Origin: an uncultured Pseudomonadota bacterium
Lineage (GTDB): Bacteria > Oederibacteriota > Muellerivitia > Muellerivitales > Muellerivitaceae
Length of the DNA stretch: 64,000 nt
NCBI GenBank assembly: GCA_963843375.1
Contig: CAWJKT010000018.1
Span: forward strand, 1 to 64,000
Direction of reading: 5' to 3'
Shown here: positions 6,001 to 18,000 of the stretch, piece by piece
How positions within the stretch are numbered: position 1 is the first letter of the stretch
Layout: each line of letters starts with the position of its first letter
Position numbers: made by a program

Positions 6001-9000
6001 CCGGAACAAACTTGCATGCCCGGCTTCCTTGGCAAACCGCGTGGTTTGTACCCGATCCTCATAACTGTGGGTGGACACGATTTTTTCATACAACCGCTCG
6101 GACGTTTCAAGATTATGGTTAAATCGGTCGACCCCGGCTTCGGCAAGCCTTTTCGCTTTTTCAGGAGTCAGGATTCCCAAAGAGGTGCAAACCTTTACAC
6201 CGATTTCAGATTTGATACTGGCGCGTCGCCTCGCAAATCACGTCCAAGTCCCGATTGCTGGGACCTCTTGTCGCTGTCACCATACAATATTTCCAAGCGC
6301 CGGCCGCCTTTGCTTTTCGGGCGCCTTCCACCAATGTTTCCACTTCCATCATGGGGTATTGGAGGGAAGGGGTTTGATATTTTGAGGACTGGGAGCAAAA
6401 GCCACAATCCTCCGGGCAGGCCCCGGATTTGGCATTTTGCAAAACGTGGATGCGGACCTTGTGACCGTGAAAGGCCCGCCGGACAAGGTAAGCGGAGTGA
6501 ACAATCGACAGGGTTTCCGATTGAGGGGCACGAAGGACCGTAAGCGCTTCTTCCTTGGTGGGTGTTATTTTATGGAGGGCCTTATCGGCCAAACTTTCCC
6601 AGAGCGAAGCGTTAGAAATGATAACCGCCATGGTGTCGTCCTTTCATTAATGTCCCGAACAAATCGCGGGTGAGTATAACATAACCCTTTAACTTGAAAT
6701 TTAACTGATCCATGGAGTCTCCAGGTTCTATCCCAAATATTGAAATGAAAAAAAATTCGGAACAGTCCGTGAATCGGCTTTAAAAGCTTTCTCGGGTTGA
6801 GGTTTTTGTTTAGATGGTTTTGGAAGCTTTAAAGAAGTTTTGGCCATTCTGAATCAATAGTTCCCCGTGAGAACAAAATCAGGATTGATATTGATAATAA
6901 ATATCATGCAAGAATGAGTTTACTTTCATTACTTTCATGGTTTTTGACCATAATTACTTTGTTAAAATTATATTTATCCTTATTTTTCAAGGCTTTTTCA
7001 CCCCAAAATAAACTGAATTTTTATCTTTGAAATGGTAATATTTTACTCATACAAGCCGTTAGGTTAAACGTAGAAGCATAATTCTTGAAACGTTTTTTGC
7101 TTCTTTTTTTTCTTCCAGGTGACTGAAATCATCTAATAAATGACTGCTTTAACGATTCTCGAAAGCGATCAAGTCATTTTCCGACATTCCTTAAAATCTA
7201 AATTCCATTGAACCGGAAAATTCAAAATTGAGTATTGAGTGTTTTTAATTAAACGTGAAATCGTTATTGAAAGCTTTTGGATGAACGAACCAAAGTTAAA
7301 TAAAAATATTATAGAGCGATCAAAACGGGTTGGAAAATCCTGTTGGATAGCCTTTGTCATTTTGGCTAGTTTGGCAAGCCATCCTTCCGCGGTTTATTCT
7401 CAATGTACCCCCACTTCCGCCACGATGTGCTCGTCGGGTGACGACGACACCACGATTTACGTCGGCGGAGTTTCCATCGGTTACTTTCCTTATGCGGGGG
7501 CCACCGGAACCGGCGATGCCGGAAATCCCACATGTGTGAGCGTTCCAACGGCTCTGTTGACCGGTGCGCAAGTCTGTTTGGCTGTTTACACCCAAAACAC
7601 CGCTCCTCTCGTCAACTTTTCGTCCTGGGATTTGGACATAACTTGCGCCGGGGGGGAGCATTCGGAAATTACTAGTAACAATACCTCTGACATGACCCTT
7701 TACTACACGAGCACGGGCAATCCCTCAACCCCGCCGCCTCCCGATGGTAGCGGTAATCCCTGGTACTCTCCAAATTACAATCCCACTTCAAGCCTCTTTA
7801 CCCTTACCGCCGCTGCCGTCACTTGCGCCGAGACCTGGGCCGAACCTATTTACAACCCTGTCACGGGCGCCCAACTGACGTTCCAAGCAAATGAGTGCGA
7901 TGCGGATACCGGCAGCGGCAACATCACGGGAGCATTGTTTTGGCGCGAGTGCGAACCCATTCCCCCTCCGGCACCACTTTTGGGACCGACCGCCTTTACT
8001 ATCACCAAGTCTATCGTTGGAGGGCCGGTCTATAATGTTCCAGGTTCGAATGATGTCTCGGTGACTTATGCCATCACTTTTTGCAACACAGGCGCCGCCG
8101 TCACTACCCCGGTTACCATCCAAGACAATATTTCGGGCGGCGGCATGCAATACAATTCGGGCTGCATTCCCGCTCCCAGTCAGCCCCAACCTTACACTCC
8201 CTATTGCGGCGGAAATGGATCTGTGATTTACCCCCTGGGGATGCCGGGTAATTATTGCCAATCGGTGACTTTTCTTTATACCAACTATTATTATCCGAAT
8301 GACTTTTGTGCGACCTTCGTCAATAACGCTACTATTTCTGATGGTGTCGTCAGCACCACCTCCAATTCGGTGACTGCCAATATAGTTTGTGCGACCAATA
8401 CTTTCACCTATACGCCGACCTATACCTACAGCCCCACTCCCAGCTATACCCCAACACCAACATGGACTCCTACCCCGCCACCTTCTACCCTTAGTCCAAC
8501 TAATACTTACACCTTTACCCCCAGCTACACCCCCACCCCAACTTGGACGAATACAACTGTTCCGGGAACCTTTACAGCCACCAATACTTATACCTTTACC
8601 CCCAGCTATACCCCAACCAATACTTTGACGGCCATACCTACTGCCACAGCAGGGGCGGCTTGCGGATCGAGCTCTGGAATTACCACACCTAACCTGACTT
8701 TAGGAGTTGCCATGGGGCAGTGTACCGGAGAGTTGAGTTACTATTTTTACGTTGTGAATAATGGGGCGACGGCGGTTCCGGTTGCCGATGTTTGTTTTGA
8801 GTTTTGGGCCTATGACACAGTTGCCACCGCTTGGGGCTCGCAACAAGACAGCCTCGGTGGTACTTACAACAGTGGCGGTACTGGTTACACGGGTGCAAAT
8901 GGAGCCTTTACTGTGACGGCCACAAAAATGTCCACTCCTTGCACTGTTATTAACGGAGTCGTAACGACTTACGCCAATTGGGAGTTTACTGTTTGCAACT

Positions 9001-15000: not shown

Positions 15001-18000
15001 CGGCCACGGATACGGCCACGGCGACCGCCACCAATACCGCTACGAACACTTCGCTGAATACGGCGACCAATACCGCCACCGATACTGCCACGAACACGCC
15101 GACGAACACTGCGACGGCTACGGCCACCAGCACGGCTTCGAACACGGCGACGAATACGGCTACCGCCACGGCTACCGGAACCCCGACGAATACGGCGACG
15201 GTGACGGATAGCTTTACAGCGACGAATACCGCCACCGACACGGCTACGCCGACTCAAACGAACACTCCGACGAACACAGCCACCCTGACGCCCACGGGCA
15301 CATCGACCAATACGGCCACGGATACGGCCACCAATACGGTTTCAAACACCCCAACCAATACGGCAACGGCAACGGCAACGGGCACGCCGACGAATACCCC
15401 AACAGGTACCGCCACCGATACCGTCACCAATACCCCAACCGATACAGCCACCCAAACTCAAACGAATACGCCGACAAACACGGCCACCCTGACGCCCACG
15501 GGCACACCGACCAATACGACGACAGATACAGCGACTAATACACTAACGGCCACGGCCACTTCCTCGGCAACAGCCACTGCGACCGGTACGCCCACGAACA
15601 CTGCGACCAACACACCCACTTCCACGACAACGGCCACGCCTACGAATACGACCACATCTACTGCTACGGGTACGTCCACGAATACAACGACCAGTACCCC
15701 AACTTCGACTATGACGCCCACGGCCACGAATACGGCCACTTCCACGGCCACCGGCACTTCCACTAAAACGGCGACGAATAGCCCCACCGCAACCGCAAGT
15801 AGCACTGCGACCCACACCACTACTTTTACCTTTACAGGTACTCCTACCCGCACACTGACTTCTACAGCCACTTTTACACCCACCGCGACCCTGACCAACA
15901 GCCCGACTTTCACCGTGACCGCCACAGCCACGAAGACCGCTACCAACACGCCGACCTATACATTCACCTATACGGCCACTCCGTCACCCACATTCACCAT
16001 GACCTTTACGCCGACTCCAACGCCTTTCCTGACCTTGTCGAAGACCGCTCCGGCCACGGCCCAACCCTTGAGCGACGTTCCCTATACCTTGACTTATTCA
16101 AACCTGAATTCAGCTGGAGTTTCCGATGTGGTGGTCACCGATTCCTTGCCAGCAACAACGGCGGGTACCTATGTCACCGGATCTGCTTCCGGTGGAGGGG
16201 TTTATAATTCCGCAACCAACCTTCTGACTTGGACAATTCCCTATGTTCCGGGAAATACGACAGTCCAACTGACATATGAATTGCAAATGGCCATGATGGC
16301 GGCCGAATACAACCCAGTGGTGAATACCGCCCAATTGACTTACTTTGGAGGTGGAGTCGTCACGGCTACAAATTCAGTCAGTATTATTGGAAATTATGTA
16401 GTCAATCTATCCGTCTATAACGGTGCTGGCGAAATCATCAAGACCATCGCCGTCTTTACGACCAACATTCCGATTTCAGATTTTTCCGTGACCGGAGGAG
16501 TTATCACCACAAACTCGGGCGTCGCCCAGTTCTTCTACAACGGGATTCTTATTGGAAGCTGGGATGCGACGTCCACATCGGGCCAGAAAGTGACCAACGG
16601 CGACTACATGGTGAAAATAAATAGCACCGATCCCATGGGTGTGGTCACGACCGTAATTCATGATGTCACGGTTGATATCAGCAGCAGCACCCTGCAAATC
16701 GCGGTGTACAACGGAGCCGGGGAAGCCGTGAAGACTTTCAGCCAGGCGCAGTTGGCGAATCTGTTGACGGGCGGTTCCATCCTGCCATCGGATTACAACG
16801 TCACCGCAGCGAAGCTCTCGAGCCAGACCATCGACCCGACTTATGGAGCACCCACAAGCGCGGATAATTTGCTCACTATCACTCTGGGTTCTGGCGACAG
16901 CTTTACTTGGAATGGAAGGGGAAACAACGGGGCAATCTTAACACCCGGCGTCTACTTCATCGAAATCCAGTCCCAACTTCCAGGTCAAGCGTCCCAGCAG
17001 ATCACAATGGAAATTCGTGTAATCGCAAACAATTCCAATAATGTCTCGGGAATTGTTCTGGGCCCCAATCCAATCCATTTGAGCCAAACCACCCAGGCAC
17101 AATTCTTTATCAATAACACGAACCTTCAATTCGACACGGTTCAAGTCCGGCTCTATACCGTGGCGGGCGAACTGATGAAGACACTCGTGAGTGAGCCAGG
17201 GAATCCCTCAGTGGTAGTTTGGGATCTCAGCGGTGGCGGGGTCGCAAGCGGTGCCTATTTAGCGGTGGTGGAACTTCAATCCAATGGCGGCCTCGTTGGA
17301 AGGCAAATCTTAAGAGTGGTGGTTCTCCACTAACCCGCCGCTGGGTGGTTCAAGCTTTTTCGGCGGGGGCACTAAAATTCCGTTAAAAATTTCCAAATCC
17401 CGCTAAAATTCAATTATTCTTTACCCATCCATTTAAAAGGTGGGCTATTTGGCGGCGACTGAAAAAAAGGGCAAAAAAGGAAAAAGTTTAAAGTTTTTAT
17501 TCGGCTATTTGGCGGGTTTTTCTTGCTGGTTGGTGGGCCTTCCCTGTTTTGAAGAGGACTCCCAAGGCCGGGTGTTTCTTTCATGGCCTAAACTCCTAAA
17601 ACATCTCAGAAAAGTATTTTTGTGGGCCTTGGAACTGACCCTTCTTTACCATCTGTTTGGGATGTACTTTAACTGGCTCTTGGGGGCCACTAGCCCCGAA
17701 AAAGTTACGGCGATCCTAGTCAAGTCGGTCGCCTTTCTTTACGTGAAGGTTTTTTGGCCCAGGGTTTTACCTGAAATTCTTCCCGGCCTCCATGTGTTCT
17801 TGTGCCCTCAATGCTACCAACGGCAAACCTTCAAGTTCCTGCCGGTTTCATTCCGTTATGGATTTTTCGTGACCTATCTTTGCCGGTATTGCTCTTGCCT
17901 AGTCGATGGATGGGGAAAACAGATTTTTTATCCTTCATCGGTTTCCTTTAAGGATTTGGTCCCGAATTTAGTTAAAACCCTGGTCCCGGTTTTAGTGGTT

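Follow-up and report, generated by a model that had tools for sequence, protein, structure and literature searches.

A giant open frame and its orthologues

The window (the whole stretch of DNA that was analysed, 64,000 nt) carries an open frame of unusual length, largely made of repeats. Is it a gene, and if so what kind of protein would it make? A listing of ORFs confirmed the single uninterrupted frame described in the genome-wide survey's note. The orthologue in another assembly, G001, starts at the equivalent Met (MNDQKIN), which makes the ATG at 7281 (residue 15, MNEPKLNK...) the likely true start; the product would then have about 3,350 aa. Neither start version of the protein was present in a collection of 15 billion proteins.

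7239..17333, plus strand: ORF with GTG start, 3,364 codons, without internal stop
7281..7403, plus strand: probable start and predicted signal peptide (41 residues, from sequence reading), then an invariant CTPxSA

The gene is real and correctly joined, because the order of head, stalk and tail is kept in two other assemblies, because independent contigs from four runs (two studies) cover 7239-9700 with 0 differences, and because the codons of the threonine register are fixed at positions 1 and 2 (entropy 0.25 and 0.19 bits) and free at position 3 (1.74 bits), a pattern showing that the plus-frame amino acid is under selection. In each of these assemblies, G001 and G075, a single contig carries the N1 head, the stalk and the C-terminal cassette in that order. 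The G001 orthologue has identities of 79% in N1, 57% in the second head domain, N2, and 81% in the cassette; the G075 orthologue has 72% in N1 and 52% in the cassette, with no match to N2. A neighbour common to the orthologue loci is bioB. We take the gene, its domain order, its folds, the threonine register, the conservation of its design and the variation in its length as directly established.

An artefact, either a mis-assembly of the repeats of several genes with alternating-threonine (XT) tracts or a dead gene kept open by a stop-free repeat, is very improbable. Such an explanation could call on the other open frames of the repeat (the minus strand has ORFs of 852 and 877 aa that fall entirely within it and mirror it, as the survey had observed), on assembly indel errors close by, at 6019 and 6217, and on the orthologues, each of which spans two frames. 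Yet the agreement of the three assemblies extends to the neighbours, the threonine-specific register is unbroken with its third positions free, and the frame break in G001 sits in a G8 homopolymer, as is typical of a read error, with no such run at that place here.

Head domains and C-terminal cassette

All 22 Cys of the mature protein fall at residues 56-684, in the folded N-terminal head; an alignment of 16 sequences shows no variation at C1, T2, P3 and A6 of the mature head.

7404..7988, plus strand: head domain N1a (residues 56-250), Cys-rich beta-sandwich, lectin-like by AF2 model and fold match
7989..8393, plus strand: head domain N1b (residues 251-385), Ig-like of the pilin/CNA-B type by VIA-align matches
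8394..8690, plus strand: short linker rich in Tyr, Pro and Thr (residues 386-484), from the translation (Thr 0.32 in block 401-500)
8691..9278, plus strand: head domain N2 (residues 485-680), CBM3-fold carbohydrate-binding module by AF2 model, fold and profile matches

The AF2 model of the N1 head was built from 16 sequences (mean pLDDT 85.3) and that of N2 from 23 (pLDDT 82.9). N1a (model residues 1-148) matched a lectin of Pleurotus ostreatus, 6kbj_A (Z 10.1, rmsd 2.6 over 121 aa), in one row only, and its profile gave a weak, short match to 'Lectin' 6t1d_A (E 0.0013); a Pfam search returned no family for it. On this one structural row and one short sequence match we call the domain lectin-like. 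N1b was matched by VIA-align to a fibrillar adhesin's CLIPPER domain (9ifr_A; Z 12.2, with 118 aa aligned at rmsd 2.4), to the BcpA pilin (Z 11.4) and to many further pilin and MSCRAMM structures. For N2 the top VIA match was 4b97_A (Z 15.8, rmsd 2.3 over 146 aa), the best six rows being all CBM3; Foldseek ranks 1-30 contained nothing but CBM3 modules and GH9 cellulases that carry one (best 4b9f_A, E 5.2e-9), and CBM3 accounted for 16 of 17 profile matches to PDB sequences (best 2xbt_A, 7.5e-5). The Pfam family CBM_3 was not detected in N2. From the fold and the weak profile match, N2 is read as a CBM3 module with putative ligand binding.

According to the survey's note no Pfam domain reached E≤1e-3. 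This is wrong: in the final 477 aa, FlgD_ig and DUF11 match well beyond this threshold, as parts of a conserved cassette.

16032..16343, plus strand: DUF11 domain opening the cassette (PF01345, E 2.6e-8; TIGR01451, 1.2e-4)
16344..17063, plus strand: FlgD_ig-like Ig modules of the cassette (PF13860, E 4.5e-13, three stretches, the last overlapping the tail)
17064..17333, plus strand: tail resembling a T9SS type-A sorting domain (PNP...YTVAGEL...ASGAYLAVV...VVVLH; TIGR04183) and stop codon

The cassette has 11 matches in the genome, this gene included, and is present in 37 of the 41 relatives searched; about ten paralogues in the genome share it. The tail of this protein scores 19.7-20.1 bits against TIGR04183, under the cut-off of 23, which seven paralogues pass; all 13 aligned tails of the family match this model at E≤0.01, and the families matched are those of T9SS only. 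Among secretion parts, SprA-like matches (up to E 7.5e-35) and 14 PorV-like matches were found, both under their cut-offs. A search for PorU gave nothing in the genome beyond tail-like pieces, and GldL and GldM were not found either, with control genomes silent too; these absences weigh little because the genome is only 80% complete.

A missing PorU-type sortase, GldL and GldM and the low score of the tail would also suit a protein that is released, not tethered: its sorting tail removed, it would bind polysaccharide as a free molecule of great length and so cross-link cells with plant fibres or glue them together. We consider this quite unlikely, given the incompleteness just mentioned and the conservation of the DUF11 and FlgD_ig cassette upstream of the tail, which suggests a cell-proximal role beyond that of a cleaved signal.

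The Cys-rich head, the spacer of about 2,250 residues and the conserved C-terminal anchoring or sorting cassette support a secreted surface-type protein. To this extent the earlier proposal of a head held on a long tether stands; the glycosylation that it included is what we infer rather than observe. Taken whole, we lean towards a giant secreted surface protein of the fibrillar-adhesin kind, with a lectin-like/Ig/CBM3 head, a probably glycosylated XT tether and a T9SS-like tail; surface attachment and ligand are inferred, as is glycosylation, for which we regard the case as about evenly balanced. From its N terminus the protein comprises a signal peptide of the Sec type, a three-part, putatively carbohydrate-binding head (a jelly roll resembling a lectin, an Ig domain of the pilin type and, after the Tyr/Pro/Thr linker, a CBM3 fold), the stalk and the cassette. 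Sec would carry it across the inner membrane, the tail would provide export and retention via T9SS-like parts (the SprA-like protein and the PorV-like proteins), and the lectin/CBM3 head would be kept far from the cell, where it may catch plant-type polysaccharide.

The alternating-threonine stalk

9291..16043, plus strand: (X-Thr)n stalk, about residues 685-2935 (translation, composition and register count)
12729..15331, plus strand: youngest array of the stalk, a 312-nt (104-aa) unit x8.3, copy number as assembled (TRF, 99% matches)

The stalk measures about 2,130-2,250 residues, and the alternation seen by the survey over some 2,100 residues was borne out: in residues 807-2914, a single unbroken register, Thr occupies 1,004 of 1,054 alternate positions and Ser 35. 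Strict runs of (XT)≥8 hold 1,980 residues of the protein, the longest being 194 aa. The residues at X are Asn (322), Ala (278), Pro (168), Thr (81), Leu (21), Phe (14), Val (11) and Ile (8). The stalk is nearly uncharged (Asp 41, Glu 1, Lys 9, Arg 2) and has no Cys. By 100-aa blocks, Thr makes up 0.42-0.58 and Asn 0.05-0.21 of residues 701-2900; at both ends of the protein Thr is 0.03-0.16, the linker block 401-500 excepted. Between 10 and 13 kb the DNA has a GC skew of about -0.5 and an AT skew of about +0.6.

With the same architecture, the tract might be unglycosylated, either a bare, disordered entropic spacer or a beta-rich matrix or fibre (biofilm or cell coat) built through its Thr and Asn faces; we find this doubtful. 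Strict two-residue alternation is the pattern of a beta-strand, and Asn is the commonest X residue, but Pro at 168 of 1,054 X positions speaks against this reading, and a folded solenoid would have no core because hydrophobic X residues are rare. Moreover, the same tracts link GH5 and GH8 enzymes, and the analogue studied experimentally, CelA, is glycosylated. On our main reading the stalk would be a protease-resistant, flexible tether, its contour length roughly 450-765 nm as computed at 0.2-0.34 nm per residue.

TRF recovered the units listed in the survey's note: 312 nt (x8.3, 99%), 300 nt (x4.8, 93%) and 384 nt (x3.4, 90%). Every tabulated period is divisible by 6, so that the X-Thr register is preserved. 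The 312-nt copies are 99.7-100% identical among themselves, but only 80% identical to the homologous unit in G001, which has 4.9 copies as against 8.3 here; G075 has a 348-nt unit x12.4. The stalks of the orthologues, about 1,690 and about 2,200 residues compared with about 2,130 here, differ in length, and we suggest that length shifts through gain or loss of large units, always in multiples of 6 nt.

The design recurs outside this orthologous group. A non-orthologous ORF of 3,138 aa in another genome has a legume-lectin head (PF18483, 6.4e-27), an XT span of 2,425 aa and a similar tail. In a six-frame scan of the present genome, (XT)≥8 runs turned up in 105 ORFs that were 80 aa or longer; 99 of these did not overlap, and some may be fragments. 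The survey's figure of 84 proteins is of the same order. In this genome the tracts are general linkers, joining GH5 and GH8 enzymes to sorting tails: among the 20 next most XT-rich ORFs were three with GH5, one with GH8, eight with FlgD_ig, two with DUF11 and one with Por_Secre_tail (eight had no Pfam family). These enzymes would bear shorter tethers of a like kind. Across the phylum the (XT)n pattern occurs in 81 of 99 genomes, a control with the reversed pattern staying near zero.

Glycosyltransferase candidates and related systems

3179..5549, minus strand: neighbouring gene and candidate partner, coding for a YfhO-like membrane protein and split between two frames of 339 and 365 aa (Pfam YfhO, 4e-8, C-terminal piece)

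The extended, Pro-interrupted, uncharged tract is probably O-glycosylated on Thr at the periplasmic side, and the enzyme would be a membrane GT-C using a polyprenyl-phosphate sugar, a precedent being the CelA linkers of Caldicellulosiruptor, whose glycosylation depends on GT39. This genome has at least 33 PMT_2 matches, six PMT (PF02366) matches over the cut-off and nine YfhO-like loci. The idea that a large PMT_2/GT-C expansion serves the XT tracts is weakened, however: abundance of PMT_2 and other GT-C genes does not track XT tracts across the phylum, for tracts are missing from one family (f5) whose PMT_2 matches number from 15 to at least 33, and numerous in one genome (G025) with seven such matches; a PMT_2 protein of 741 aa is confined to 20 of 99 genomes. 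This mismatch also favours an unglycosylated tract.

A narrower link survives, that of YfhO-like genes beside the head/cassette class of this very protein. Such genes are recurrent neighbours of N1-head genes, and three of the nine YfhO-like loci lie within 6 kb of 13 N1/cassette genes, as against a random mean of 0.43 (5,000 random placements, of which 36, or 0.0072, reached three). They are not nearer to XT ORFs in general (three of nine, random mean 2.54), and YfhO-like matches are absent from two XT-positive families, f7 (0 of 4) and f10 (0 of 11). Intact orthologues of the neighbouring protein have 680-720 aa, and 24 of its 30 Atlas matches fall in the YfhO set.

The protein gives a new form to a design that other bacterial adhesins and cellulase linkers already show, and the novelty claimed by the survey was overstated, glycosylated dipeptide-repeat stalks and GT-C-glycosylated alternating Thr/Pro cellulase linkers being known already. 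Its nearest known counterparts are adhesins with serine-rich repeats and the Thr/Pro linkers of cellulases that GT39 glycosylates. The Ser repeats of the former are dipeptide-like. Gram-positive glycoproteins of this group (PsrP, Fap1, GspB, Srr1/2, FapC), as far as the source excerpts describe them, share a signal peptide, a non-repetitive N-terminal binding region, a very long low-complexity repeat stalk of hydroxy amino acids and a C-terminal anchor. The excerpt of PMC7661464 gives lengths from 970 to over 5,000 aa with stalks that differ between strains, and describes SRR2 as an extended stalk projecting the binding region. Here, in contrast, Thr replaces Ser, the head is lectin/CBM3-like rather than host-protein-binding, the protein lacks an LPxTG motif and has a T9SS-like tail with the DUF11/FlgD_ig cassette, and the bacterium has outer-membrane secretion parts.

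For the CelA linkers of Caldicellulosiruptor bescii, with alternating Thr and Pro, the excerpt of PMC6151902 reports that deletion of the GT39 gene abolished all glycosylation, and that without it CelA is cleaved and crystalline cellulose no longer supports growth; the enzyme, Cbes_1864, is a GT-C of the membrane whose donor is probably a lipid-phosphate sugar and which is encoded close to its substrate gene. CelA, as described there, resembles our protein in bringing alternating-Thr linkers together with CBM3-type modules in secreted cellulolytic proteins, but its linkers are short and join domains, whereas here a single tract runs to some 2,250 residues, Asn and Ala rather than Pro predominate at X, no catalytic domain is present, and the GT-C genes adjoining the head/cassette class are YfhO-like, not GT39.

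An adhesive domain, an elongated stalk and surface attachment (the last presumed here) define fibrillar adhesins in Monzon and Bateman's account, and a pilin/CLIPPER-type Ig domain in the head is typical of the class; their stalks, by the same account, are tandem folded domains, unlike the low-complexity dipeptide repeat of this protein. CBM3 scaffoldins and anchoring proteins such as CipA are likewise non-catalytic surface proteins with a CBM3-fold module and Thr/Pro-rich linkers, but our protein has a single giant linker where they have many short ones and, by Pfam, no cohesin, dockerin or SLH domain. Both the best sequence-profile match and the best fold match of N2 are to scaffoldin CBM3 modules.

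Reading frame, repeat register and assembly of the giant gene

The single plus-strand frame proposed in the genome-wide survey's note was recovered: window positions 7239-17333 form one ORF, 3,364 codons long, that begins with GTG. Judged by sequence comparison, the true start is probably ATG 7281, which would give a protein of ~3,350 aa, because the orthologue in G001, an assembly from the same genus, begins at a Met equivalent to residue 15 (residues are counted here from the GTG). The gene and the two genes upstream of it are as follows.

3179-5549 (−): YfhO-like membrane protein gene in two frames (339 and 365 aa), 1.7 kb upstream of the giant gene
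5616-6631 (−): bioB (biotin synthase), split into two frames
7239-17333 (+): giant gene with the alternating X-Thr (XT) stalk

The Thr-rich stalk also held up. In blocks of 100 residues the Thr fraction is 0.42-0.58 over residues 701-2900 versus 0.03-0.16 at the ends of the protein, the exception outside the stalk being block 401-500, a short Thr-rich linker (0.32). Strict (XT)≥8 runs hold 1,980 residues, and residues 807-2914 keep a single unbroken register with Thr at 1,004 of 1,054 positions and Ser at 35. All four Thr codons are used in this register; codon positions 1 and 2 hardly vary (entropy 0.25 and 0.19 bits) whereas position 3 is nearly free (1.74 bits), which argues for selection on the amino acid in the plus frame and against a non-coding DNA repeat. 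The competing minus-strand ORFs, of 852 and 877 aa, fall wholly within the repeat. The tandem repeats reported by TRF were found again, with copy numbers as assembled: a 312-nt unit ×8.3 at 99%, a 300-nt unit ×4.8 at 93% and a 384-nt unit ×3.4 at 90%. All TRF periods tabulated are multiples of 6 nt; thus, unit turnover never breaks the X-Thr register. Units that keep the register in this way provide a natural set of spacers whose lengths are defined. Over window positions 9000-16000 the stalk has an extreme strand asymmetry (GC skew to −0.52, AT skew to +0.66), so that the template strand is G/T-rich over ~6 kb.

The protein, in either start version, is absent from a collection of 15 billion proteins; this fits, and does not prove, the earlier statement that the gene was left uncalled. 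The statement that there is no Pfam domain did not stand, as the last 477 residues match FlgD_ig (E 4.5e-13, in three stretches) and DUF11 (2.6e-8). With this one correction the description is accurate, and the gene is real.

Logan contigs from four runs of two studies, compared over window positions 5500-9700, are identical to the giant gene over its first 2.4 kb; the longest contig piece in this comparison has 1,757 bases, and the copy number of the 312-nt array is that of the assembly. No RNA run was listed among the runs with this sequence. Contigs of three runs lack a single base at 6019 and at 6217 and have substitutions at 5634 and 5874. The two missing bases indicate indel errors in the window, and the split of bioB is therefore to be read as an assembly error rather than as the mark of a pseudogene.

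Three independent assemblies, namely the window genome, G001 (five contigs) and G075 (another genus), agree on the giant stalk, and in all three bioB is the upstream neighbour. The G001 orthologue has 79% identity in N1 (head residues 56-385), 57% in N2 (residues 485-680) and 81% in the C-terminal cassette (DUF11, FlgD_ig and a sorting-like tail), with an XT span of ~1,690 residues. The values for G075, whose orthologue is read in two frames, are 72% in N1 and 52% in the cassette with an XT span of ~2,200 residues; N2 has no match in this orthologue. The G001 frame breaks at a run of eight G (locus L001, 4676-4690), where nine would restore it, and the window encodes the corresponding Gly-Gly-Gly without a homopolymer. 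Either an error in the reads or a switch prone to slippage, in a gene for a surface protein, could account for this break. The 312-nt unit occurs in 4.9 copies in G001, and G075 has a 348-nt unit ×12.4. Since the 312-nt copies of the window share 99.7-100% identity with one another and only 80% with the G001 unit, the arrays must have been homogenised or amplified separately in each lineage. The downstream ORF 17440-18048, considered as a partner of the giant gene, was rejected: it has 78% identity in G001, was not found at the G075 locus and matches no Pfam family.

Predicted folds of the head and candidate sorting signals of the tail

The mature protein has 22 Cys, all of them within residues 56-684, after an N-terminus that reads like a signal peptide. 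Anchoring as a lipoprotein through the invariant Cys behind this peptide was discarded, as YSQ|C is unlike the lipobox and, in G001, one more residue precedes the Cys.

N1 matches no Pfam family. Relatives of it occur in 54 of the 99 phylum genomes, with up to 22 matches per genome, and none of the 14 relatives of 579-2,000 aa found in a set of 5.8 billion proteins (E≤1e-10) carries a functional name. Alignment A1 took in 16 of the 25 N1 loci (L012 being the window itself) and omitted L022, which has an internal stop, as well as the partial matches L016, L017, L024, L026, L028, L031, L032 and L036. An AlphaFold2 model made from these 16 sequences has a mean pLDDT of 85.3. Its second half finds its best structural match in 9ifr_A, the CLIPPER domain of a fibrillar adhesin (Z 12.2), and is predicted to be an Ig domain of the pilin/CNA-B type. 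Its first half appears lectin-like: in a single row of the comparison it matches the fungal lectin 6kbj_A (Z 10.1, rmsd 2.6 over 121 aa), and a short profile match to a 'Lectin' chain (E 0.0013) adds weak support.

The N2 model was built from the 23 segments of alignment A2 (omitting L042, which has stops, L055, and L059, a duplicate) and has a pLDDT of 82.9. It is predicted to have the CBM3 fold, a nine-stranded beta-sandwich, and 146 of its 151 residues superpose on 4b97_A (Z 15.8, rmsd 2.3). The best six rows of this comparison are all CBM3, and Foldseek ranks 1-30 hold only CBM3 modules or CBM3-bearing GH9 cellulases (best 4b9f_A, E 5.2e-9). Residues 1-820 match no Pfam family at E≤1, CBM_3 included. 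The N2 family profile compared with PDB sequences gives CBM3 in 16 of its 17 matches, the best being 2xbt_A at 7.5e-5. Because the profile reaches CBM3 but the Pfam CBM_3 model does not reach N2, we regard N2 as a distant relative of CBM3 and not as a member by the Pfam model. In CBM3 modules, crystalline cellulose is bound by a planar strip of aromatic and polar residues.

At the other end of the protein, the DUF11 and FlgD_ig cassette has 11 matches in the genome, the giant gene included, and matches in 37 of the 41 relatives searched. Type-A cargo of the type IX secretion system (T9SS) is recognised by a C-terminal sorting domain of ~80 aa matching TIGR04183 or PF18962. The C-terminus of the giant protein gives weak matches to several T9SS families; its TIGR04183 score of 19.7-20.1 bits (E 4.6e-4 to 6e-4) falls short of the cut-off, which is 23. 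When the last 100 residues of 13 cassette-family members were aligned, all 13 matched TIGR04183 (E≤0.01), and every family matched was a T9SS-related one. In the whole genome 22 TIGR04183 matches are above the cut-off, seven of them being cassette paralogues. Of the T9SS core (SprA/Sov, PorV, PorU, PorL/M or GldL/M), SprA-like matches (E 7.5e-35) stay under the cut-off, as do the 14 PorV-like matches, which reach 64.9 bits versus a cut-off of 250. In this genome, which is 80% complete, PorU was matched by tail-like pieces only and GldL and GldM had no match, control genomes being equally silent for the last two. From the tail and these parts we infer a T9SS-like export route and surface attachment for the giant protein. 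Elsewhere in the genome, weak PorV-like matches at C3:138975-139217, C28:14424-15194 and C16:26976-27374 each adjoin an XT or sorting-tail ORF (C3:133349-138526, C28:15254-17812 and C16:26605-26799, respectively), and these PorV-like neighbours may be cargo-specific partners.

The X-Thr design in the phylum and candidate modifying enzymes

A period-6 pattern of Thr codons, written for twelve dipeptides, has hundreds to thousands of overlapping matches in 81 of the 99 phylum genomes; the reversed pattern, run as a control, gives zero in most genomes and 149 at the maximum. The pattern has no match in the 18 genomes of families f4, f5, f11, f12 and f13 and is present in every other family sampled, so the XT-free clades offer a clean contrast, a set of natural controls, in the search for the modifying machinery. 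In the window genome (XT)≥8 runs occur in 99 non-overlapping ORFs. The giant gene is the richest of them, with its 1,980 residues in such runs, followed by two ORFs with 1,178 and 1,072. Among the 20 XT ORFs that rank next after the giant gene GH5 is found in three, GH8 in one, FlgD_ig in eight, DUF11 in two and Por_Secre_tail in one; eight have no Pfam family, and several end in sorting-domain matches. A stalk of the same class is carried by a non-orthologous 3,138-aa ORF of another phylum genome (G016:C65; locus L109, 3076-12489), which has an L-type (legume) lectin domain (PF18483, 6.4e-27) and 2,425 residues of XT span; the last residues of its T9SS-like tail are KVMVLH. The XT stalk is thus a family-wide building plan, and at least two different heads have come to carry megastalks of 1,700-2,400 residues.

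Two more XT-tract ORFs lie in the window, at 49368-51644 (+) and 54076-58455 (+); they encode 759 and 1,460 aa and have no Pfam family, and the sorting-tail match of the second, at 21.1 bits, is below threshold. A giant gene of surface type in genome G013 (C24; locus L108, 8192-19000) stays open for at least 3,603 aa in the piece examined, 5,060 aa by another listing, with just 332 residues in XT runs and a YfhO-like match ~6 kb away.

That the stalk is glycosylated is a reasonable supposition, by the precedent of the linkers of Caldicellulosiruptor CelA. In PMC6151902 a gene for a GT39 membrane glycosyltransferase is described near celA, its deletion abolished all glycosylation, and the deletion led to more cleavage of CelA and to no growth on crystalline cellulose. 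Genes of the PMT/GT39 type are present in the window genome, with six PF02366 matches above the cut-off and at least 33 PMT_2 matches. The survey's claim that a large set of such membrane glycosyltransferases (class GT-C) serves the XT tracts was not upheld, as PMT_2 counts do not follow the tracts. XT-positive genomes have from seven to at least 33 PMT_2 matches, G025 combining seven with many tracts; in the XT-free families there are 15 to at least 33 in f5, 3-4 in f11, 2-9 in f4, nine in f12 and 17 in f13. One PMT_2 protein of 741 aa is present in 20 of the 99 genomes only. The simple account in which PMT_2 is the XT transferase family was rejected on these counts.

The YfhO-like gene next to bioB is another candidate. 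Its intact orthologues have 680-720 aa; Pfam YfhO covers only the C-terminal ~65 residues, in four of six relatives tested, and in the Atlas 24 of the 30 nearest clusters belong to the YfhO set. Among the matches listed, 19 N1 matches, in 14 of the 31 family genomes, have a YfhO-like match within 6 kb, against a rough expectation of ~2.9, compared by eye and with relatives that are not independent. In 15 loci selected for showing the pair, and hence no test of it, each N1-head XT gene is accompanied by a YfhO-like gene of ~555-813 aa, several of which are cut by the end of the locus or contig. The pairs differ in arrangement: YfhO-bioB-N1, divergent, as in the window; both genes on one strand, the YfhO-like one lying directly upstream, at gaps of 171 and 451 nt (L121, L122); and divergent genes 148-200 nt apart (L119, L120). 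Of the nine YfhO-like loci in the window genome, three have one of the 13 N1/cassette genes within 6 kb, versus a random mean of 0.43, and 36 of 5,000 random placements (0.0072) reached three. Set against all 99 XT ORFs, the YfhO-like loci show no enrichment (three of nine versus a random mean of 2.54, a fraction of 0.48 of 5,000 placements reaching three). Two facts speak against a functional link: the conserved block also includes bioB, for which no tie to the adhesin is evident, and the XT-positive families f7 and f10, which lack N1 as well, have no YfhO-like matches. We treat the pairing as a lead.

Relation to known surface proteins and a proposed mechanism

The closest working analogue of the giant protein is the serine-rich repeat protein. 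In the latter, long Ser-rich repeats flank the binding region, whereas the giant protein repeats X-Thr (1,004 Thr versus 35 Ser); serine-rich repeat proteins have an LPxTG anchor, whereas the giant protein has no LP.[TSA]G motif anywhere; and their locus encodes accessory Sec with the glycosyltransferases GtfA/GtfB, none of which a Pfam search of 18 neighbouring ORFs found here, no search aimed at them having been made. Fibrillar adhesins have one or more adhesive domains, and for the giant protein CBM3 and lectin-like folds are predicted. The adhesin stalk is made of tandem folded domains, whereas that of the giant protein is a low-complexity dipeptide repeat; as a working concept the fibrillar adhesin suits the giant protein, except for the folded-repeat stalk that defines it. 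It is a novel form of an already known surface-protein design. Searches of open-access papers and preprints turned up no account of T9SS cargo with alternating-Thr stalks. To our knowledge, low-complexity stalks of repeated hydroxy amino acids have been studied almost solely in Gram-positive pathogens. Here the same stalk design, with Thr for Ser, occurs throughout an uncultured soil phylum, on putative carbohydrate-binding heads and cellulases and at lengths of up to ~2,400 residues. Such genes are apt to be broken by assemblers or overlooked by gene callers, and the surface proteomes of these lineages are therefore under-counted.

In the mechanism we propose, export by Sec is probable, and modification of the disordered XT tract on the periplasmic side has about an even chance. 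Export and retention would then proceed through the T9SS-like tail and the cassette. As a flexible tether with a calculated contour length of ~450-765 nm, the stalk would present the lectin/CBM3 head to polysaccharide of the plant type. PMC7031533 links the FCPU426 16S cluster to cellulose-degrading 'Goldbacteria'; 16S rRNA was not found in the window genome. If glycosylation is confirmed, the known range of protein glycosylation by GT-C enzymes would widen, and the result would bear on how uncultured cellulolytic bacteria keep enzymes and binding modules away from the cell.

The boldest reading, which we consider rather unlikely, takes the X-Thr register as the recognition code of a dedicated periplasmic O-glycosylation system, in which proteins with an N1 head, XT stalk and cassette duplicated and diverged as pairs with the neighbouring YfhO-like GT-C enzymes. 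If true, this would be the first protein-glycosylating enzyme of the YfhO type and a counterpart of the Gram-positive serine-rich repeat system in a bacterium with an outer membrane, one whose candidate phylum lies outside the Bacteroidota group and whose export takes a T9SS-like route. As its coat, the cell would then have a mucin-like brush holding lectin, CBM and cellulase heads at genetically adjustable heights.

A minor observation concerns window positions 60001-64000, where G+C is 0.58-0.71 compared with ~0.47-0.52 in the rest of the window; this is possibly one of the stretches that the survey had called foreign.
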